DNA from: an uncultured Bacilli bacterium
GTDB lineage: Bacteria > Bacillota_I > Bacilli_A > RF39 > UBA660
Assembly: GCA_934148995.1 (NCBI GenBank)
Contig: CAKPDM010000001.1
Span: 69,073 to 133,072, forward strand
Reading direction: 5' to 3'
DNA length: 64,000 nucleotides
Both the position numbers and the translations under genes were made by a program. Numbering within the stretch: the first letter of the stretch is position 1; every line of letters begins with the position of its first letter. This document shows, in pieces, positions 15,097 through 36,939 of this stretch. A model generated the notes under the pieces. The model did not search any database and had not been told where the DNA came from. It saw only the letters and a program-made list of their open reading frames with translations.

Positions 15097-15534
15097 TTAT
15101 AAGTATTCTTTTAGTTTATCCACAGTTCGTTGTTGAAATTTTAAAAAGTCTTCGGCTAATTTCTTATCTTCCTTGTTTGCTTCTTTAGTAAAGTCTTTGA
15201 TTTTCTTTTCCATTTCAATAGAACCCATTGATACACCTTTAATTAACATATCAGCTATAGCAGAATCGCTATTATCTTTCTTTACTTCCTTACTAATTCC
15301 CATAGTGGACATCATCTTTGCAATAAGTCCTTCCTCTGCTAGTTTGATATTTTCTTTTTTTAGTTGTTCCTTCGCTTTACTTTTAAATTCTTGATATTCT
15401 TTTAAAATATCTTCTGCTAAGCCTTTAATCTTATTATCTCTTTCTTTGAGTTCTTCTAATAAGTGCTCCATCGTATAACTTCCCATCGAAGCATCTTTAT
15501 ATATATGTTCTAATAATTCATTTGTTTCTTTCAT
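15097..15534 (-). CDS. Hypothetical small charged coiled-coil protein
   Basis: 145 aa, K/E-rich, no TM; co-directional with CotF-like genes. Confidence 0.35.
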   Translation of the reverse strand: MKETNELLEHIYKDASMGSYTMEHLLEELKERDNKIKGLAEDILKEYQEFKSKAKEQLKKENIKLAEEGLIAKMMSTMGISKEVKKDNSDSAIADMLIKGVSMGSIEMEKKIKDFTKEANKEDKKLAEDFLKFQQRTVDKLKEYL

Positions 15535-15536
15535 AA

Positions 15537-15869
15537 TTATTCTCCTTCTATTTTTTCTTGTTCTTCTAATAATGTCTGATACTTTTCTGTGACTTTTATC
15601 TCTCCTGCTTCTTCTAATTTATAAAAACCACATCTAAACATAACTTCAAATGTTTCTCTTTGTAGATTTAACAACTTATCATACATTTCTTTATATTTAC
15701 TAAACAATTCTTCATTACTCACTTCTGTTAAAGCTACTGTATAATCTTTAACCATAGCTTTTAGAGTTGTTAATAAGTCACTTATATAATCTTTATCATT
15801 TAGTTCTATTCCTTCTTCCACTTCTATCATAGTATTAGATATTTCTTTATTCATGACTTCCTCCTTCAT
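15537..15869 (-). CDS. Spore coat protein F (Coat_F domain)-like
   Basis: 110 aa; DKDYISDLLTTLKAMVKDYTVALTE...LQRETFEVMFRCGFY closely resembles the CotF/YraD family signature. Confidence 0.5.
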   Translation of the reverse strand: MKEEVMNKEISNTMIEVEEGIELNDKDYISDLLTTLKAMVKDYTVALTEVSNEELFSKYKEMYDKLLNLQRETFEVMFRCGFYKLEEAGEIKVTEKYQTLLEEQEKIEGE

Positions 15870-16077
15870 TTAGAATATCTAGTATGATATTCATATTTTC
15901 TTTAAAAGTATCTCCTGCTTTTTCTATTGTTTCTTCTATTTCTAGATTATTTATCATATCAATTGAATTAATCATTTTTTTATAAGCTAGATAATTCCAA
16001 TTAAACATATCTTCTAAATAATCTAAATCTTTTGTAGAAATAATAGTTGGTACTTTTTCATAATTCATTTTTATCAC
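15847..16077 (-). CDS. CotF-like small protein (partial-length Coat_F domain)
   Basis: 76 aa; STKDLDYLEDMFNWNYLAYKKMINS... similar to first half of Coat_F domain. Confidence 0.35.
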   Translation of the reverse strand: MIKMNYEKVPTIISTKDLDYLEDMFNWNYLAYKKMINSIDMINNLEIEETIEKAGDTFKENMNIILDILNEGGSHE

Positions 16078-16111: not shown

Positions 16112-16146
16112 TATACAAAAAATATCAGTTGTAAGCAACTGATACT
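16112..16146 (-). terminator. Rho-independent terminator after PPKTG-ending gene
   Basis: minus strand ATCAGTTGCTTACAACTGAT then ATTTTTTGT. Confidence 0.5.
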
Positions 16147-17206
16147 AAACACCTGTCTTAGGTGGAATTATTTCATCACTTGGTTCTTCATCTACATTAA
16201 TAATTTCTATTTCTTTTGGTTGTTCTTTTGTTAATTGAAATTCAATATAAGCACTAAATTCATAGTTCATATAAGCATTTGTAGTATATGGTCCGTTTAT
16301 ATAGAAGTTCATTGTTGTTAAACTATTTTCACTTGATGGATTAATTGTTCCTAAATCTTTTGTAAAGTAATCATTACCTAATTCTCTATTTCGCATGTAA
16401 CTTCCAATTGCTGATAAATTACTTGTTTTATAATCATATTTTTCATCACCAAACAAGACACTAAATAATACATTGTACCAATAGTCGTAACCAAGTTCAG
16501 CCACTTCTAAATTACTTTCTTTGATAGGATAGTTATTTCCATTAAATAGTTCACTCACTACGTTTGCTGGTAAATCTTCTAGGTTAGTACACTTTAGATT
16601 ATATTTATTATTATAGAAATCTAAATAATATTTGTTTAATTCTTCTATTCCTTTGTAACCATTTTGTTGTAATTGATTTCCTAATGCTTCATCTGTTAAC
16701 ATATCTTTCTTGATACTTTTCTGATATAGAGCTCTTAATGCTGAATTTGCTGTTCTATTTGGTCCAAAAGTTCCAGCTATTACTTGTCCATCAAAGCCTT
16801 TACTATTTTCTAATTTTTCTTCATAATTACTAATATCCATCGTTGATAAGATAAAGCTTTTATCTTTATATAAATATTTATTATTTGATTTATTTATTAT
16901 TTGAATATTAACTTTAATTCCATCTCCTGGAACATAACCATCACTTTCACTAATTGCTTTAAAGATAGTTGGTACTATATTTATAGTATCTTCATTATAA
17001 TCTTCTGGTATTGTATAAGTTGCAGTTACCGAATCAATAACTCTTCTTGATATATGTACATCTATATTTTCCACAATTCCTGTGGATAAAACTTTTTCTG
17101 TCTCTTTTGTTGTTTGATATTTACTTAAGTTTTTTGCAGATACTGGCATACTACTTATCAGTAACATTAATGTTACCAAACTCATAAAAAATAATTTTTT
17201 TATCAT
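16145..17206 (-). CDS. Secreted protein with signal peptide whose extreme C-terminus is PPKTGV (sortase-B-type motif without membrane anchor)
   Basis: 353 aa; MIKKLFFMSLVTLMLLISSMPVSAKN signal; ends ...EEPSDEIIPPKTGV-stop; overlaps sortase B gene by 4 bp. Confidence 0.5.
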   Translation of the reverse strand: MIKKLFFMSLVTLMLLISSMPVSAKNLSKYQTTKETEKVLSTGIVENIDVHISRRVIDSVTATYTIPEDYNEDTINIVPTIFKAISESDGYVPGDGIKVNIQIINKSNNKYLYKDKSFILSTMDISNYEEKLENSKGFDGQVIAGTFGPNRTANSALRALYQKSIKKDMLTDEALGNQLQQNGYKGIEELNKYYLDFYNNKYNLKCTNLEDLPANVVSELFNGNNYPIKESNLEVAELGYDYWYNVLFSVLFGDEKYDYKTSNLSAIGSYMRNRELGNDYFTKDLGTINPSSENSLTTMNFYINGPYTTNAYMNYEFSAYIEFQLTKEQPKEIEIINVDEEPSDEIIPPKTGV

Positions 17207-17883
17207 ATTTTCTCCTTTAATTTTGCCCCAATCACAAGATACTGTCCATCCTCATCTTGGGAACAAGTTTGTAGTATTAATATTTTATTTGTTTCATCTA
17301 TATTTATACCTGTATCATATATAGATTTTTTCTTTAATTCTTCTAAGTGACTTTTAAATTTTTCATCACTAAATGCCAATCTTGTGTAAAAATAATCTTC
17401 TTTCAAGAGCATAACTGTAAATATTTGATAAATTTCTTTTTTATCTGGATAAGTTAATTCTATATTAGGATGATTTGTTAGAAATGATTGTTTTTTATAT
17501 CCTAGTAATTTTGTAAACGGAATATCTACAGTTGAAGAACTATGTCCATAAATAATTATTTTCCTTGTATTGTTAAGGTCTATTCGATAATCAACAAATA
17601 AGCTTCCACCAATAAATTTTTCTTTTTTATTATTATGATTCATATAAAATTCATTATCAGTTGTTTGCATTACTTTTTCATTTTGAATTAAATCATTTAT
17701 TGATAATGTTAGTTTTTCATCTTTATTTTTCTCTTCTTCCTTAACTGTGGCAGTGGTATTTATATCTGTAGCTTGGACATTAGTGGATTGTTTCTCCACT
17801 TGAGGAGTTTCTTTAACTCTATCAGGAATCATAATTATTAATAGACATATTATTATACTGACAACTGCTACTTTTTTTCTCAT
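17203..17883 (-). CDS. srtB: Class B sortase
   Basis: 226 aa; N-terminal TM anchor, IIIYGHSS (His), TKL, and LILQTC active-site Cys context typical of SrtB. Confidence 0.7.
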   Translation of the reverse strand: MRKKVAVVSIIICLLIIMIPDRVKETPQVEKQSTNVQATDINTTATVKEEEKNKDEKLTLSINDLIQNEKVMQTTDNEFYMNHNNKKEKFIGGSLFVDYRIDLNNTRKIIIYGHSSSTVDIPFTKLLGYKKQSFLTNHPNIELTYPDKKEIYQIFTVMLLKEDYFYTRLAFSDEKFKSHLEELKKKSIYDTGINIDETNKILILQTCSQDEDGQYLVIGAKLKEKI

Positions 17884-17935
17884 CTTCCCTCCTTTTTTCT
17901 AATATAACAGTTCAGATGAGAAAGTTTTGTCGAAA

Positions 17936-17968
17936 GAAAAAAATCAGTCTAACAAAGACTAATTTTTA
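17936..17968 (-). terminator. Terminator after Tmk-like gene (hairpin AGTCT-AACAA-AGACT + T-run, overlaps stop)
   Basis: seen directly. Confidence 0.45.
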
Positions 17969-18638: not shown

Positions 18639-19835
18639 TTATTTTTTTAATATTTTTCTTATTGTAAGAAATTCTTGTGGATACTCTTCTAATCTTCCAC
18701 GATTTTCATTAATTATGATAGGAGGAACAAAGTCAATATACCAGCCATTTTTCAAGTATTCACTAAATTCATGCTCATAGTTAACACGGCTAGTGGTAAT
18801 TGTTTTTTTCTTTTGACTTGATATTTTATGAAATCCACAAACTCTTACTAATAAATCACTCATATCTAGTTTTTTAATAAAATTCAAATCTTTATTATAA
18901 TTTGTTGATTTTAGTTTTAATTCTTCAAAAAATTCATAAAAACAAGCATGTGCGTCATAAATACCAGCTATTAGATTTACTAATCTTTTATCATAGCTCT
19001 TTCCATCATAGTAGCTTGTAAAATGATAAATCAAATTAACACAATCTTGAAACTCTGAGTCAGTTATAAAACCGTTTTTAGTTACATTAGAAATGTTATT
19101 GAGATAGTATTTAGAATTTGACAAATTCTTTAAATTATTATCCATTTCTTCATAATAAGCATATTTTAAATTGGAACCTTTGTGACCGTTTTCTCCCATA
19201 GAATTATACAATCCACCCGAAGGTGTTATATACCACGAATCAGGTAGATTAAATTTTATTTTACTTGATCTTTTGGGAATAATAAGATCATATTCATTTA
19301 ATTTCTTTATTGCTGAATCTATTTCTTTTCCTATTTCTGGTGCTAATTTTCCTTGAAATGTTGCTACCGTTTTCAAAGATTCTAAATACTCCTTCAATTC
19401 ATTTTTACTTTTCATATTTAGATTAGAATCAAACAAGTATATGTTTATTATTGAGGTAATATATAAATTTATATGCTCATAATATTCAGATGTTCCTTTT
19501 TCATATTTAAACTTGGCCATCAAAAGAGCAAATTTACGTTTAAAATTATCATTTTTTGCAAGTATATCATCTGATAAATAGTCATAAATATCGCTATAGA
19601 TTTCTGCATAACAGTCAAGAACTTGTAAAAAGTCATCATTATCATATTTTGAAGGCAATAAATCATTTAGTAAAACATCCAGATCAGCTAGTTTGCAAAA
19701 AAGTTTATAGTACGTTTTATAAAATTCTATTGGTACCTGATTGGCTTTAATACTAAGATCCATCATTCGTAACGGTTCTACCAAATCTAAATACTGCTGC
19801 TTTTTTTCTTCTAATTCTTTATAATATTTAATCAT
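18639..19835 (-). CDS. Hypothetical protein of unknown function, co-operonic with Tmk-like kinase, adjacent to tmRNA
   Basis: 398 aa, Y/N/K-rich, no TM, no recognisable motif by eye; 11-bp gap to downstream kinase gene. Confidence 0.45.
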   Translation of the reverse strand: MIKYYKELEEKKQQYLDLVEPLRMMDLSIKANQVPIEFYKTYYKLFCKLADLDVLLNDLLPSKYDNDDFLQVLDCYAEIYSDIYDYLSDDILAKNDNFKRKFALLMAKFKYEKGTSEYYEHINLYITSIINIYLFDSNLNMKSKNELKEYLESLKTVATFQGKLAPEIGKEIDSAIKKLNEYDLIIPKRSSKIKFNLPDSWYITPSGGLYNSMGENGHKGSNLKYAYYEEMDNNLKNLSNSKYYLNNISNVTKNGFITDSEFQDCVNLIYHFTSYYDGKSYDKRLVNLIAGIYDAHACFYEFFEELKLKSTNYNKDLNFIKKLDMSDLLVRVCGFHKISSQKKKTITTSRVNYEHEFSEYLKNGWYIDFVPPIIINENRGRLEEYPQEFLTIRKILKK

Positions 19836-19970: not shown

Positions 19971-20348
19971 TGGTGGAGATGAGGGGTATCGAACCCCTGT
20001 CCAAAAATAGAGCTACATAAACTTCTACAAGTTTAGATTGTTTATTAAATTCAAATTATAGTAAAGAAACAATCAACCAAACTACGATTCTAGTCTTATA
20101 CTATTCAGCTATTTACTAAGACGATAAATAACTATATCTTACTAAAATAAACCGTACAATCTTAACGTAAGAAATTAAGAAAGACAGCGTACAAGCCTAT
20201 TCTTAGGCAAATGCTAAACTAGTGTTTCCACCAAAGTTTGCAAGTACATTTTTAATTTTGTTTCCAGTTATTCTGGTTTAATCTGTAACGTAGATAATTC
20301 GACTTGCTATCTATGCTCTACTATTCCTGTCGAATCCAAGACATCCCC
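19971..20348 (-). ncRNA. ssrA: tmRNA (SsrA)
   Basis: 5' GGGGATGTCTTGGATTCGACAGG... and 3' ...GGACAGGGGTTCGATACCCCTCATCTCCACCA; acceptor stem with G3:U70; internal tag reading frame; smpB immediately upstream. Confidence 0.9.
20203..20241 (-). other. tmRNA tag-peptide reading frame: (A)NFGGNTSLAFA-stop
   Basis: GCA AAC TTT GGT GGA AAC ACT AGT TTA GCA TTT GCC TAA; resume codon assignment inferred. Confidence 0.45.
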
Positions 20349-33061: not shown

Positions 33062-34102
33062 TTATCTTTGTGATAGTCCATATACTTTAACTCGTTCTTC
33101 TCTTCCTTTATTTATCTCATTACAAATTGACTTTGCTACAACATTTCTATTTTTTAAAAGATTGTATGAGGCTTCGCTAAGTATCATATCTTTATATATA
33201 AAATATATTTGTTTCAAATCAACAGTTTCAATATAACCTTTCTTAAAATTCATTGTCATTTCTAAAGCTGTTGGTAGTGTTTGGTTTACGTCAGATAACG
33301 ATGGAACAATTATTGCTAGTTTATTTTTAGATGTCATTTCGGCTTTATACTTATGTAGGTGTCCATGTAAAGATATTATAGAGTCTGATCGTTTGTTGAA
33401 TAAATTGTCTATATGATGAAATAAATCAATTGTATCATTCTTAATATTAATTGATGTTCTTTGATAGCCACCAATTATAATATCTTGCCGATAATTTTTG
33501 GTTGCTTCTATTATTGATCTAGAATCATCATAATAACCATATATATCATGGTTACCTGCTACAGCAAAAGTTAATATGTCTTTGTCAAATGGATAATCTT
33601 TCAGAAAATGTTTAATTTGCTTTTCTACAGTATCATACTCACTTTTGCATCTTTTGAAAAGACAATCTATCATGTCTCCTACACAAAAAATGATATGAAT
33701 ATTATTTTTGGCACAGTAATTGAATGCATTATCTACTAAATCAGGGCGCTCTAATTTATTACCATAATGTAAATCTGATATTATTAAAGTTTTGATACTA
33801 GTTTCATCGTGTAAAGAAAGCAAATTATTTGTTAGTAGTTCTTTAGAATTAGTAACATTGCTTAATGATGAGTCTATTTTGTATGTTATCTGACCATTAC
33901 TATAATAATTTTTACTAAAAATTAAACCACTATTTTTCAAATGTAATAATTTGTTATATAACTGTTTATTAGAAATATTTAATTCTTTACTAATATCGTT
34001 ACAAGTTCTACCTTCTTTTATCATTGTATCACTCGCTTTAAGAATCATTATAAATTTTGTAAAGAAAAAAGACAAGAATAAACTTATCTTCCATTCCACC
34101 AT
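33062..34102 (-). CDS. Winged-HTH domain fused to calcineurin-like metallophosphoesterase
   Basis: 346 aa; N-term TCNDISKELNISNKQLYNKLLHLKNSGLI (HTH), then DLHYGN / GDMID / GNHD / HGHLH phosphoesterase motifs; true start uncertain; overlaps M23 gene by 19 bp. Confidence 0.55.
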   Translation of the reverse strand: MVEWKISLFLSFFFTKFIMILKASDTMIKEGRTCNDISKELNISNKQLYNKLLHLKNSGLIFSKNYYSNGQITYKIDSSLSNVTNSKELLTNNLLSLHDETSIKTLIISDLHYGNKLERPDLVDNAFNYCAKNNIHIIFCVGDMIDCLFKRCKSEYDTVEKQIKHFLKDYPFDKDILTFAVAGNHDIYGYYDDSRSIIEATKNYRQDIIIGGYQRTSINIKNDTIDLFHHIDNLFNKRSDSIISLHGHLHKYKAEMTSKNKLAIIVPSLSDVNQTLPTALEMTMNFKKGYIETVDLKQIYFIYKDMILSEASYNLLKNRNVVAKSICNEINKGREERVKVYGLSQR

Positions 34103-35331
34103 GCTCTAAGTCCTGCTGGGAAACCTATATATTGTCTTGGATTGATTGTGCTTTTTTCATAAGCGGTATAGCTGGCACAACCACCACCAACATTCCAATC
34201 ACAACTAGTAATTTCTAAGTGTAGATGAGCAGCTGTTGAACAACCAGAATTACCCATTCTACCAATCATAGTATTAGTAGTAACTTGCATACCAACACTT
34301 ATATTTCCATAACTACCTAAATGAGCATAAGTTGAGTAAATATATCTACCATTAACTAAATGTCTAATTTTAACTATCTTAGCATTACCATTACAACCAT
34401 AGCGACACCAATTACCAGTAGTACAAGAATCTGAATAGATTTTGAAAATTACCCCATCAGCGATTGGATAAACCGGAATTGATCTATCATTTGAATTAGA
34501 TAAATCGATACCTAAATGTCCTCCATAACCTCCCCAGTTTTGAGTTACATATCCACTAGTCATTGGTCTAAAGAAACCACTTACAGAAGGAGGAATAGGA
34601 ATGCTTCCACCACTACCATTATTACTTCCACCTTGGGCTCTATCATGACGATATTGACAAGCGTAGATATCTTCATTTGTACCACAACCTAACTTCTTAT
34701 AATAAGCTAGGTTAGCTTTGGCTGCTTTTAATTGTTCTTGAACTGATGGCATAGATTCTCTAATTGACTGCGTATCAGCATTTATTCTTTCTTTTTCACT
34801 TTCTAGTTTTGCTTTAATTGATTTAAATTCTTCCTTTTTTGCAGCTAATTCTTTAGTTTTAGCTCGATTAGTTTTGATTAGTTCATCTAATTCATTCATT
34901 ACTTTTTGATTATATTCTGTTAACTGTTCAACAACACTTAAGCGATAAACCATTTCTGTAATACTTTCTGCTCCAAAAACATATTCTAAATAAGCATTAT
35001 TTCCATTACTTACTTGTAAATATTGAAATAACTGTTTACTTTCTTCAGTCTTCTTTTCTATTTCATCATTTGATTTATCAATTTCTTCTTCTAATGACTT
35101 CATAGAAGTTTCTAAGTCACTTATTTGTTTCTCATAAGAAGCAATGTTTTTCTTTATTTCTGCTACTTCTTGGTCATTTTTAGCAATTTTGGCTTCTTTT
35201 TCTTCCAAACTTTTAGTAAAGTTATTTACTTCATTTTCAAAGTCTTTTATCGTTTTAGCATTAACACTATAAGGTATTAAACTAGTCATCACTAACAGTA
35301 GGAAAAGACCTATCTTTTTCTTACTACTCAT
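34084..35331 (-). CDS. Secreted coiled-coil M23 (LytM) peptidoglycan endopeptidase, FtsEX-associated (PcsB/EnvC-like), Cys-rich catalytic domain
   Basis: 415 aa; signal peptide, ~200 aa coiled coil, M23 motifs GHLGIDL (HxxxD) and AHLHLEI (HxH); 10 Cys in C-terminal half; directly downstream of ftsX. Confidence 0.75.
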   Translation of the reverse strand: MSSKKKIGLFLLLVMTSLIPYSVNAKTIKDFENEVNNFTKSLEEKEAKIAKNDQEVAEIKKNIASYEKQISDLETSMKSLEEEIDKSNDEIEKKTEESKQLFQYLQVSNGNNAYLEYVFGAESITEMVYRLSVVEQLTEYNQKVMNELDELIKTNRAKTKELAAKKEEFKSIKAKLESEKERINADTQSIRESMPSVQEQLKAAKANLAYYKKLGCGTNEDIYACQYRHDRAQGGSNNGSGGSIPIPPSVSGFFRPMTSGYVTQNWGGYGGHLGIDLSNSNDRSIPVYPIADGVIFKIYSDSCTTGNWCRYGCNGNAKIVKIRHLVNGRYIYSTYAHLGSYGNISVGMQVTTNTMIGRMGNSGCSTAAHLHLEITSCDWNVGGGCASYTAYEKSTINPRQYIGFPAGLRAWWNGR

Positions 35332-35332
35332 A

Positions 35333-36232
35333 TTACACCTTTAAATACTTTCGAACGGCAGATGATGAACCTATCATACCTACTAAAATACCAATTATTA
35401 AGATTATTCCTGATACTATGTAAATAAACGGCTCAGGTTCTACTAGTTTAATTATTTCTGTATAGACATAACCATTTAGATGATTATATAAAGCAACATA
35501 ACCAAAGCATACAGCAAGAATTGGAAGGATAGAACCAATACATCCTAAAATCATTCCTTCTACAATAAATGGTGTTTTAATAGCAATATTACTAGCACCT
35601 ACTAATCGCATAATAGATATTTCTCTTTTTCTTGAAAAGATTGTTAATTTGATAGTGTTAACAATTAAAAAGACTGTTACTAGAATTAAAGCTATTACTA
35701 CTCCATAAGCTCCTTTTTCAATAACACTGAACATACTAATCATTTTATCAACCCAAGCTTCACCATAATTAACAACACTTACTTGGTCTAGTTTTTTAAT
35801 TTTTAATGCAGTATCTTTGATTTTCTCAACGTCTTTAACTTTTACTTGAAAAGTATCTTTTAAAGGATTATCATCATCTTTCCAAGTAGACATTACTTCA
35901 TTAAACACTTCATTTTCTTTACGCATTTCTTCTTTAACTGCATTTTTACTTTGATAAGTTAAACTTTCAACATTATTCATTTTTTCTAATTTTTGTTGAA
36001 CATCTTTAACTTGGTCCTCAGTTGTATTATTATTTAGAAATACTACTATCGTTAAGTCTTTTTCCATTTCTTTAGTAAAGTTTTCTACGTTAAATGTCAA
36101 GATAATAGCAACTGCTACAATTAATAGAGTTATTATTATACAAGATATTGATGCTAACGATAGAGAAAAGTTACGAAAAACTGATTTAAAAGCATCTCTG
36201 ATACTTCTACCTAACATTCTGAAAAATCTCAT
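35333..36232 (-). CDS. ftsX: Cell division permease FtsX
   Basis: 299 aa; TM1, large extracellular loop, three C-terminal TM helices; overlaps ftsE. Confidence 0.8.
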   Translation of the reverse strand: MRFFRMLGRSIRDAFKSVFRNFSLSLASISCIIITLLIVAVAIILTFNVENFTKEMEKDLTIVVFLNNNTTEDQVKDVQQKLEKMNNVESLTYQSKNAVKEEMRKENEVFNEVMSTWKDDDNPLKDTFQVKVKDVEKIKDTALKIKKLDQVSVVNYGEAWVDKMISMFSVIEKGAYGVVIALILVTVFLIVNTIKLTIFSRKREISIMRLVGASNIAIKTPFIVEGMILGCIGSILPILAVCFGYVALYNHLNGYVYTEIIKLVEPEPFIYIVSGIILIIGILVGMIGSSSAVRKYLKV

Positions 36233-36939
36233 TCTTCATACTCTCCTTTCTCTACGTGTTTTAATAAATGTCCATCTTTTAGAACTATTACTTCTTTTTT
36301 CATCTTATTAACAATATCTTTATCATGGGTTGCCATAATAATGGTTGTTCCACAAGACTTGTTAATTTGTTCTAAAACTTGCATTATTTCCATACTCATA
36401 TCAGGATCCAAGTTACCTGTCGGCTCATCACATAGTAAAAGTTTAGGTTCGTTTACAATTGCTCTTGCTATTGCAACACGTTGTTGTTCTCCACCTGATA
36501 ATTGGTCTGGATAATTATGTATTTTATGTTTTAAACCAACTAATTCTATTGCTTTTAGAGTTTTCTTTCTAATTTCGTCACGTCTAGCACCTAGAACTTC
36601 CATAGTAAAAGCGACATTTTCATAAACAGTAGATTTTGGTAATAAACGATAATCTTGAAATACTATTCCTAGTTTTCTTCTTAGTTTATATACTTTTTTG
36701 TTTCTAAGCTTTAAAACATTTAGTCCACCAACAATTATTTCTCCCTTTGTTGGTTTCTCCTCACGATATAACATCTTTATAAATGTACTTTTACCGCTTC
36801 CACTACCTCCGATTACAAAGACAAATGAGCCTTTTTTTATGGAAAGAGATAAGTCATAAATTGCTGTTACACCATTTTTATATTGTTTGGTTACATTTTT
36901 AATTCTTATTAGTTCCATCTTATCCCACCTTATATTCAC
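36229..36939 (-). CDS. ftsE: Cell division ATP-binding protein FtsE
   Basis: 236 aa; Walker A GGSGSGKST, LSGGEQQRVAIARA, Walker B LLCDEPTGNLD. Confidence 0.85.
   Translation of the reverse strand: MNIRWDKMELIRIKNVTKQYKNGVTAIYDLSLSIKKGSFVFVIGGSGSGKSTFIKMLYREEKPTKGEIIVGGLNVLKLRNKKVYKLRRKLGIVFQDYRLLPKSTVYENVAFTMEVLGARRDEIRKKTLKAIELVGLKHKIHNYPDQLSGGEQQRVAIARAIVNEPKLLLCDEPTGNLDPDMSMEIMQVLEQINKSCGTTIIMATHDKDIVNKMKKEVIVLKDGHLLKHVEKGEYEE

Follow-up and report, generated by a model that had tools for sequence, protein, structure and literature searches.

The window analysed here, i.e., a stretch of 64,000 nucleotides from the genome of an uncultured Bacilli bacterium, harbors two partially overlapping genes coding, respectively, for a putative sortase and for a secreted protein ending with PPKTGV. 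The comparative analysis of these two genes leads us to propose, with moderate confidence, that they form a two-gene operon encoding a sortase of class B fold and the one secreted substrate to which it is dedicated; the sorting signal of the latter would consist of just the recognition motif and a minimal leaving group. Two textbook requirements, that is, the Cys-His-Arg centre of the enzyme and the tripartite sorting signal of the substrate, are absent from this pair, and these absences are conserved and repeated in a lineage of abundant but uncultured bacteria of the human and animal gut. The genes and signals on which the proposal is based are the following (positions are those of the window):

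17203-17883 (-), sortase gene, coding for 226 amino acids (aa), with a transmembrane (TM) anchor at the N-terminus, a disordered linker of about 30 residues and a catalytic domain with a predicted class B fold, of the arginine-less 'QTC' type.
16145-17206 (-), putative substrate gene, coding for 353 aa, with a signal peptide, a head domain of about 300 aa, an acidic disordered linker and the terminal PPKTGV.
17203-17206 (-), ATGA overlap between the stop codon of the sortase gene and the start codon of the substrate gene, as read from the open reading frames (ORFs).
17135-17206 (-), signal peptide of the substrate, residues 1-24 (...PVSA/K), recognized by inspection of the sequence.
16148-16174 (-), putative minimal sorting tag E-I-I-P-P-K-T/G-V, made up of the motif and a two-residue leaving group (G-V).
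16113-16147 (-), TAG stop codon and intrinsic terminator with an 11-pair stem and a T run, closing the two-gene operon (terminator scan).

In the substrate, a single residue (Val) follows the Gly of the motif, with neither a hydrophobic segment nor a positively charged tail. The translation of the three downstream frames disclosed no C-terminal TM helix and no basic tail, as the first-pass annotation of this DNA had stated, and the +1 frame 3' of the gene reads only FSISCLQLIFFV before a stop codon. The two ORFs, their 4-bp overlap, the PPKTGV end, and the stop codon with its terminator hairpin are likewise as described there. The hairpin with a T run, which is terminator-like and spans positions 16146-16121, lies directly 3' of the TAG codon of the substrate gene; three sites of this kind were found by the scan vs. 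0.3 expected in shuffled sequences.

In order to describe the conservation of this unusual end, two samples were considered. The search for homologs of the substrate among 5.8 billion proteins retrieved 89 sequences, while a scan of one genome per species yielded 57 loci (designated by L numbers), which belong to metagenome-assembled genomes (MAGs) of uncultured gut 'Bacilli', 'Tenericutes' and 'Mollicutes' and to Clostridium sp. CAG:451. All the full-length homologs (337-409 aa, sharing 37-97% identity) end with [IV][IV]PPxTG[VIL], followed by zero to three residues and the stop codon. Counting also the variants with another residue in place of the Gly, the relatives sharing 37-99% identity all have PPxT(G/N/S/D) and one to three residues at their end. 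Ile346, Pro349, Thr351 and Gly352 are invariant in the alignment of 17 substrate homologs of 38-97% identity, and the acidic linker preceding the motif is variable in both length (from about 10 to more than 70 residues) and sequence; the motif is thus far beyond chance. The PPKTGV codons differ synonymously between close relatives (CCA/CCT, AAG/AAA, GGT/GGA, GTT/GTA), and the stop codon and the terminator hairpin are maintained, with a changed sequence of the upper stem and loop, in L003, L005, L006 and L009. Across species, the anchorless genes stop with either TAA or TAG, in most cases followed by a hairpin and a T run, and the same end was retrieved in independent assemblies representing at least 20 species-level genomes and many metagenomes. 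Judging from these data, the anchorless end is under selection. The first-pass annotation had hesitated between a truncated substrate, possibly with a missed frameshift, and an unusual anchorless arrangement, and had suggested a comparison of orthologs. The close relatives turn out to share the anchorless PPxTG end and only the distant ones carry a full anchor; the idea of a truncation must be abandoned, since none of the close or mid-distance homologs departs from the anchorless end.

The length of the tail following the motif shows a trimodal distribution, i.e., one to three residues (23 loci), 19-25 polar residues with a charged cluster at the end, or 25-33 residues with a hydrophobic stretch. 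A length of zero never occurs: a residue after the Gly is always present and is usually hydrophobic, which fits the need for an internal T-G scissile bond and for an occupied P2' site. The tails of 25-33 residues are those of canonical homologs, whose best 15-residue Kyte-Doolittle mean is higher than 1.8. In distant homologs (about 470-1200 aa, many of them with MucBP domains), the same head domain is joined to a classical sorting signal, as an example VPNTG or PPKTG, a hydrophobic segment, and then RKRFN.

The intermediate tails represent a third type of C-terminus in the substrate family, in which PPHTD or PPQTG is followed by 19-25 mostly polar residues ending with (I/L)Y-x-E-(E/D)-x-K-K (L029:4035-7167, L032:5992-7506, L033:5983-7542, L035:4283-6070 and L048:6001-7677). 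With a best 15-residue Kyte-Doolittle mean lower than 1.2, they are too polar for a membrane helix; where the sortase is visible, it is a Q-type enzyme (that is, one with Gln at the X position of the TLXTC signature) with a 12-residue β7-β8 loop. These tails are possibly an intermediate or a distinct retention signal.

Concerning the relationship between the two genes, the anchorless gene touches a Q-type sortase gene in 23 out of 23 loci from species-level genomes, and the same arrangement is found in two metagenome loci (L063 and L067). In most of the anchorless loci the sortase gene is located upstream with a short overlap, while in L020-L023 it is located downstream; the motifs of these four loci are PPNTN, PPKTS or PPKTD. 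The sortase gene of L011 is intact. The same -3 overlap existing in the window is present in L001-L011 and in L017, and more distant pairs have other short overlaps or gaps; the ATGA overlap suggests that the translation of sortase and substrate might be coupled, and an AAGGAG sequence is located 8 nt 5' of the substrate ATG. The clustering of all the neighbouring genes revealed that the sortase and the substrate are the only genes in common once the species diverge, and that no accessory gene (signal peptidase, second pilin, LCP) is common to the divergent loci.

The combination of an anchorless end and a Q-type sortase is not limited to this substrate family. A second anchorless family consists of small secreted proteins (147-212 aa) unrelated to the window substrate; a database search with one of them retrieved 41 homologs (44-100% identity), 40 of which end with (I/V)PxTGI immediately before the stop codon. 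The adjacency to a sortase is known for the two members whose contigs were read (L060:4706-5308 and L062:2588-3031), both ending with EKIPNTGI and encoded directly downstream of Q-type sortases. The unusual anchorless arrangement envisaged by the first-pass annotation is thus strengthened both by the 23 adjacent pairs and by an unrelated family having the same end. By eye, the two small proteins look cadherin-like.

Other Q-type sortase genes adjoin, either upstream or downstream, genes for surface proteins of 565-1190 aa, which possess a PPxTG or IPxTG motif, a hydrophobic segment and a basic tail (VWA and MucBP Pfam domains are on record only for the surface protein of L058). Since these adhesins carry complete sorting signals, their position beside Q-type sortases argues that the clade is enzymatically competent. 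In a rough neighbour-joining tree of the sortases, the enzymes with anchored and anchorless partners are interleaved, which is suggestive only, and might point to several, at least four, independent transitions between the two states. The length of the β7-β8 loop was also considered as a predictor of anchorless partners and then dropped, because a loop of seven residues is found with both types of partner and the sortase of L016, with a loop of 12, has an anchorless one.

The residues of the sortase that are relevant for the following analysis are encoded by:

17542-17544 (-), codon of His114 (YGHSS), the catalytic histidine, invariant in two sortase alignments.
17263-17271 (-), codons of Gln205-Thr206-Cys207 (ILQTC), i.e., the TLXTC signature with Gln in place of the canonical SrtB Ser.
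17239-17241 (-), codon of Tyr215, which takes the place of the catalytic Arg at the start of strand β8, according to the HMMER alignment to Clostridioides difficile SrtB.
17584-17592 (-), codons 98-100 (DYR), including that of Arg100, identified by sequence alignment.

The first-pass annotation had assigned the enzyme to class B. As far as the fold is concerned, the assignment holds: the catalytic domain was modelled by AlphaFold2 (AF2) with a predicted local distance difference test (pLDDT) value of about 95, and the 19 best Foldseek matches in the PDB are all class B sortases (E 1e-18 to 5e-11, TMt 0.68-0.88), the top SrtB matches having E values of about 1e-18 and TMt of 0.76-0.88, while class A, C and E sortases were matched only at E values of about 1e-6. 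The modelled fold is therefore that of a class B sortase. At the sequence level the assignment does not hold entirely, since the scores are below the cut-offs of both TIGR03064 (98.9 bits vs. 153.75) and Pfam PF04203 (Sortase; 23.8 vs. 26.6), and the catalytic Arg of class B enzymes is missing. Among solved structures, the closest sequence retrieved by phmmer is that of C. difficile SrtB (E 5e-20). In this enzyme, Arg217 is anchored at the start of β8 and belongs to the Cys-His-Arg triad (PMC5118464); the residue of the window sortase aligned on it by HMMER is Tyr215. YGH114 and ILQTC207 are invariant in the two sortase alignments.

In order to assess whether the absence of the Arg is peculiar to the window, a profile search was performed on 1.84 billion cluster representatives, which gave 1,393 matches at E<1e-30. 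The best 150 of these 1,393 (representatives of clusters at 50% identity) were aligned together with the window sortase and the C. difficile reference. Of these 152 sequences, 150 possess the His and 148 the Cys, while the Arg column contains Y (80), F (32), L (14), N (5), K (3) and R (5, one of which is the C. difficile reference). Among the sequences from the loci, the X position of TLXTC is occupied by Gln in all the 64 Q-type enzymes, which also possess both His and Cys, and by Ser in all the 47 Arg-type ones. When distinct locus sequences were counted (83 in total), the Arg was absent from 58/58 Q-type sortases and present in all the 25 S-type sortases with an aligned residue. The cluster representatives include 137 Q-type sequences without and two with Arg. 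The Q-type sortases thus make up a large, uncharacterised clade of uncultured gut Bacilli. The first-pass annotation had regarded the lack of any of the catalytic Cys, His and Arg as an observation that would speak against a sortase-substrate pair. The Arg is indeed absent, but Cys and His are there, and the loss does not look like decay, because Tyr, Phe or Leu in its place, together with Gln two residues before the Cys, is the conserved state of a clade that has kept His and Cys.

Regarding the recognition of the motif, Tyr166 and Asp163 correspond in the alignment to Tyr167 and Asp164 of C. difficile SrtB and are kept in the Q-type sequences. In a published in-silico model of C. difficile SrtB in complex with PPKTG, these two residues interact with the P4 Pro and the P2 Lys (PMC5118464). 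Hence, the reference to the (S/P)PXTG recognition of clostridial SrtB in the first-pass annotation was a reasonable one, the closest solved structure being that of C. difficile SrtB and the motif-contacting residues being aligned. On the whole, the sortase looks active and PPxTG-specific. Arg100 was considered as a replacement for the catalytic Arg and rejected: it is also present in C. difficile SrtB and, by homology, it is placed at the β3/β4 loop, off the catalytic site. It is invariant in 64/64 Q-type sequences, while D, R and Q are found in the Arg-type enzymes of the metagenome sample; its role is probably a structural one, not that of a catalytic Arg that has migrated.

The substrate begins with a signal peptide (MIKKLFFMSLVTLMLLISSMPVSA, followed by K), in which the n-, h- and c-regions and a VSA/K site can be seen by inspection; the equivalent of the V-x-A site is kept in the alignment of the homologs. 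The sequence is consistent with a signal peptide of the Sec/SPase I type without a lipobox, predicted to be cleaved at this site. The AF2 model (pLDDT 87) depicts a β-sandwich with a helical insertion and disordered residues 334-353 (pLDDT <50). No fold in the PDB was matched by Foldseek (best E 0.27), the sequence profile found no match to PDB sequences, and the protein matches no Pfam, NCBIfam or PHROG family and no NCBIfam sorting-signal model. The same head domain is placed on MucBP stalks in the anchored relatives, which makes it reasonable to guess, and no more than that, that it is an adhesin or a ligand-binding domain.

Other homologs of the substrate, of about 300 aa, stop right after the last β strand and have no PPxTG. 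About 3.5 kb downstream of their genes there is another, highly divergent sortase-like gene (268-290 aa, with the sequence SLITCTR) showing neither the Gln nor the usual Arg pattern (L017:10565-11437, L018:10494-11300 and L037:10424-11257, with equivalents in L019, L030, L036, L041-L043 and L053). The region between the two genes codes for a DUF4352 protein and for an Ig-like membrane protein of 550-600 aa, neither of which has a sorting signal.

On the basis of these data, the following route can be proposed for the pair, in which the cleavage, the acceptor, the mechanism of retention and the role of Gln are what we infer. The substrate would be exported by Sec, and its flexible acidic C-terminal linker would present PPKTG to a sortase synthesized from the same mRNA and at the same membrane site. 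Cys207 would attack the Thr351-Gly352 bond, with the release of Gly-Val and the formation of a thioacyl enzyme, and the resulting complex would be tethered by the TM segment of the sortase itself. The head of about 33 kDa would then be passed to an amine of the envelope, most likely that of a peptidoglycan precursor, and the short linker would keep it in or near the wall, as happens with SrtB and IsdC in Staphylococcus aureus. A hydrophobic tail would not be needed for retention in the membrane, its part being presumably taken by co-synthesis and/or by an uncleaved signal peptide acting as a transient tether. Lastly, the amide of Gln205 may take over the role of hydrogen-bond donor of the missing Arg; this residue would face the same side as Cys207, since it lies two residues before it on strand β7, and an analogy is offered by the Gln of the oxyanion hole of papain-type proteases. 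As for the acceptor, the domain scan of the window disclosed a PcsB-type M23 peptidoglycan hydrolase, CdaA and YbbR; the presence of the PcsB-type hydrolase and of putative FtsEX suggests a walled cell, in which a peptidoglycan acceptor is plausible.

Several points weigh against this proposal. The Arg is regarded as catalytically essential in the sortases studied so far (PMC4155245), so that activity without it is an assumption; moreover, the residue that replaces it cannot itself be catalytic, because Phe and Leu also occupy this position. The idea that Gln205 may substitute for Arg draws only on covariation and strand geometry. Studies of C. difficile indicate that precursors are kept at the membrane, and thus available for sorting, by their hydrophobic and charged tail (PMC5569036), and an anchorless precursor might simply be secreted. 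Finally, some homologs consist of the domain only and have no motif, so that a sortase tag is not required for the head domain to function.

Among the alternative explanations, the first one is that the sortase is a pseudoenzyme acting as a receptor, which would bind PPKTGV non-covalently or as a long-lived thioacyl adduct without any cleavage, so that the membrane-bound protein itself would be the anchor. The replacement of Arg by residues as chemically diverse as Y, F, L and N would agree with such a function, the gene overlap would suit a 1:1 stoichiometry, and an anchorless partner does need something that holds it. We nevertheless judge a receptor unlikely, because the near-universal His and Cys and the invariant Gln would be superfluous in a mere binding module, the same clade pairs with TM-anchored substrates whose release from the membrane needs cleavage, and the residue after Gly, which is always kept, matters more for a scissile bond than for binding.

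A second possibility is the ligation of proteins to each other, in which Thr351 would be joined to an amine of a second substrate molecule, thus forming a fibre, or of a different surface protein, rather than to peptidoglycan. Class B pilus sortases (Spy0129, 3psq, and that of the pneumococcal type II pilus, 4y4q) are among the Foldseek matches, the layout of one substrate with its own sortase recalls a minimal pilus locus, and soluble subunits would suit an addition from outside the membrane. As in our pair, the streptococcal enzymes (Spy0129/SrtC2, 3psq; 4y4q) combine a class B fold with a location beside specific, non-LPXTG substrates; however, they keep the Arg and act on pilins, which have a nucleophilic Lys and complete sorting signals. 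The window substrate, instead, has no pilin fold of the Ig-like CnaA/CnaB kind, its confident model matching no PDB fold at all, and no invariant Lys exists in the alignment of its 17 homologs, the conserved N-terminal S-K-Y being S-I-W or S-S-W in some members. In addition, no second pilin or basal subunit is conserved beside the pair. Polymerisation is therefore improbable.

The sortase might also be a hydrolase that just trims the last residues of the protein, which would then be released, the motif being a maturation or quality-control tag. Sortases hydrolyse their substrates slowly when the nucleophile is absent, and a product not anchored in the membrane could be lost by diffusion. Nevertheless, the trimming of two to four residues of a disordered tail has no obvious benefit, and two unrelated families, in many species, have kept both the tag and its dedicated enzyme; processing alone is thus very improbable. 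Lastly, an artefact or a decayed gene (frameshift, assembly error, recoded stop codon, or a coincidental PPKTG), for which the mildly hydrophobic +1 frame and the full anchors of the more distant homologs might speak, is refuted by the comparative data and retains practically no probability, since the same end is found in many independent assemblies with both TAA and TAG, the terminator after the stop codon is conserved, and the motif is invariant while the linker varies. Frameshift and recoding were rejected on the basis of the downstream frames, of the stop codons and hairpins across the loci and of the stop usage in the window, where TAA, TAG and TGA each close long ORFs; recoding is excluded because all three codons are used normally.

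Going back to the proposed sorting of the substrate by its own sortase, the pair can be compared with known systems. Like C. difficile SrtB (CD2718), the window sortase possesses a class B fold and an N-terminal membrane anchor, and the C. difficile substrate CD2831 has the same PPKTG motif as the window substrate. C. difficile SrtB cleaves the peptide PVPPKT/GDS in vitro between T and G (PMC4155245), which indicates that a short tail suffices in vitro. The two systems differ in the active site (Arg217 and TLSTC in C. difficile, Tyr215 and ILQTC in the window), in the substrates, since those of C. difficile need a hydrophobic domain and a charged tail for their retention in the membrane (PMC5569036) and the window substrate has neither, and in the number of partners, because C. 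difficile SrtB, as a housekeeping enzyme, serves about seven scattered substrates and the window sortase is paired with a single adjacent one.

A class B sortase co-encoded with a single substrate is also known in S. aureus (SrtB-IsdC) and in Listeria (SrtB-SvpA), and the fold of the window sortase matches 1ng5 and 4lfd in the Foldseek search. In these systems, as in the window pair, the folded domain is so close to the point of anchoring that the protein would stay inside the wall and would not be displayed on a stalk. However, in IsdC the motif NPQTN precedes a hydrophobic segment and a basic tail of the normal kind, and S. aureus SrtB has Arg233, all of which are lacking in the window pair; furthermore, unlike IsdC, the window substrate has no NEAT domain and no known fold. 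By analogy, the pair would work like a dedicated SrtB-IsdC pair with the motif specificity of C. difficile SrtB, but it is not an ordinary member of either family, the catalytic Arg being absent from the enzyme and the hydrophobic and charged segments from the substrate.

From a functional viewpoint, the closest analogue of the substrate end is provided by laboratory sortagging, in which a soluble protein carrying LPXTG and one or a few residues is captured by a sortase without any membrane anchor, although this occurs in vitro and at high concentrations of both enzyme and substrate. To our knowledge, no natural system of this design is known, and none was found in the literature searched. Likewise, the literature searches, whose coverage is incomplete, disclosed no description of Arg-less sortases or of naturally anchorless sortase substrates, and those on sortases of Tenericutes-like lineages gave no precedent either.

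If the pair turned out to be active, the range of chemistry accepted for sortase active sites would be broadened, with a solution based on Gln and an aromatic residue replacing the Arg; the predictors of surface proteins that demand a TM segment and a basic tail would miss a class of substrates; and new ligation enzymes, naturally accepting a short and soluble PPxTG or IPxTG tag, might become available. More tentatively, the 'QTC' sortases as a whole could be a distinct and widespread subclass of uncultured gut Bacilli, relying on Cys-His and on Gln in place of Arg, which has repeatedly in evolution come to capture soluble, fully translocated proteins through xPxTG plus one to three residues. 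Should this be true, sorting would be possible without the 'essential' Arg and without the hydrophobic and charged signal for retention, and sortagging would have a natural counterpart.

The 5' side of the operon is defined by the following features:

17884-17960 (-), upstream boundary of the operon, 3' of the tmk stop codon, read from the sequence.
17946-17960 (-), weak hairpin after the tmk stop codon, with only two G-C pairs and a T run extending to about 17935.
17888-17894 (-), strong Shine-Dalgarno sequence AAGGAGG of the sortase gene, read from the sequence.

The weak hairpin is absent from the list of the terminator scan. Sigma-70-like matches are as many as expected from shuffled sequences; no convincing promoter was recognized upstream of the pair and none was assigned. 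The first-pass annotation had placed the two genes in an island-like stretch, which does not agree with the uniform G+C content or with the order of the genes, which from RNase R to the ABC transporter is identical in Clostridium sp. CAG:451. Within the genus (L005), the entire neighbourhood is syntenic. A genomic island was therefore rejected on the basis of the flat G+C and of the complete synteny with CAG:451, and the within-genus synteny together with the flat G+C implies that the pair is not a recent island.

As for the neighbouring genes, a 398-aa ORF located between tmk and the transfer-messenger RNA (tmRNA) gene (18639-19835, -) found no match in Pfam, NCBIfam or PHROGs. Its identity with the counterparts in L001-L003 is as low as about 56%, vs. 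about 99% for the flanking genes, and L005-L010 lack it. It is a hypervariable gene beside the tmRNA gene, whose locus is a classical integration hotspot. The tmRNA itself (19971-20348, -) encodes the tag peptide GNKIKNVLANFGGNTSLAFA. Tags ending with ...AFA are typical of lineages related to Mollicutes rather than of clostridia, and this ending fits the 'Bacilli/Tenericutes' labels of the matching MAGs. A group of genes located in the region 33062-36939 (-) codes for a PcsB-like M23 hydrolase with a coiled-coil, for putative FtsE and FtsX, identified from their sequences alone, and then for a calcineurin-like phosphoesterase; it suggests a peptidoglycan wall in spite of the 'Tenericutes' labels of some relatives. 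On the other side of the operon terminator, three small genes (15097-16077, -) code for products of 76, 110 and 145 aa, the second with a Coat F domain (PF07875, E 1e-14) and the third with a coiled-coil. The Coat F gene group hints that the organism sporulates. L005 has the three genes in the same order, while in the distant locus L038 the neighbour of the sortase is a homolog of the 145-aa product.

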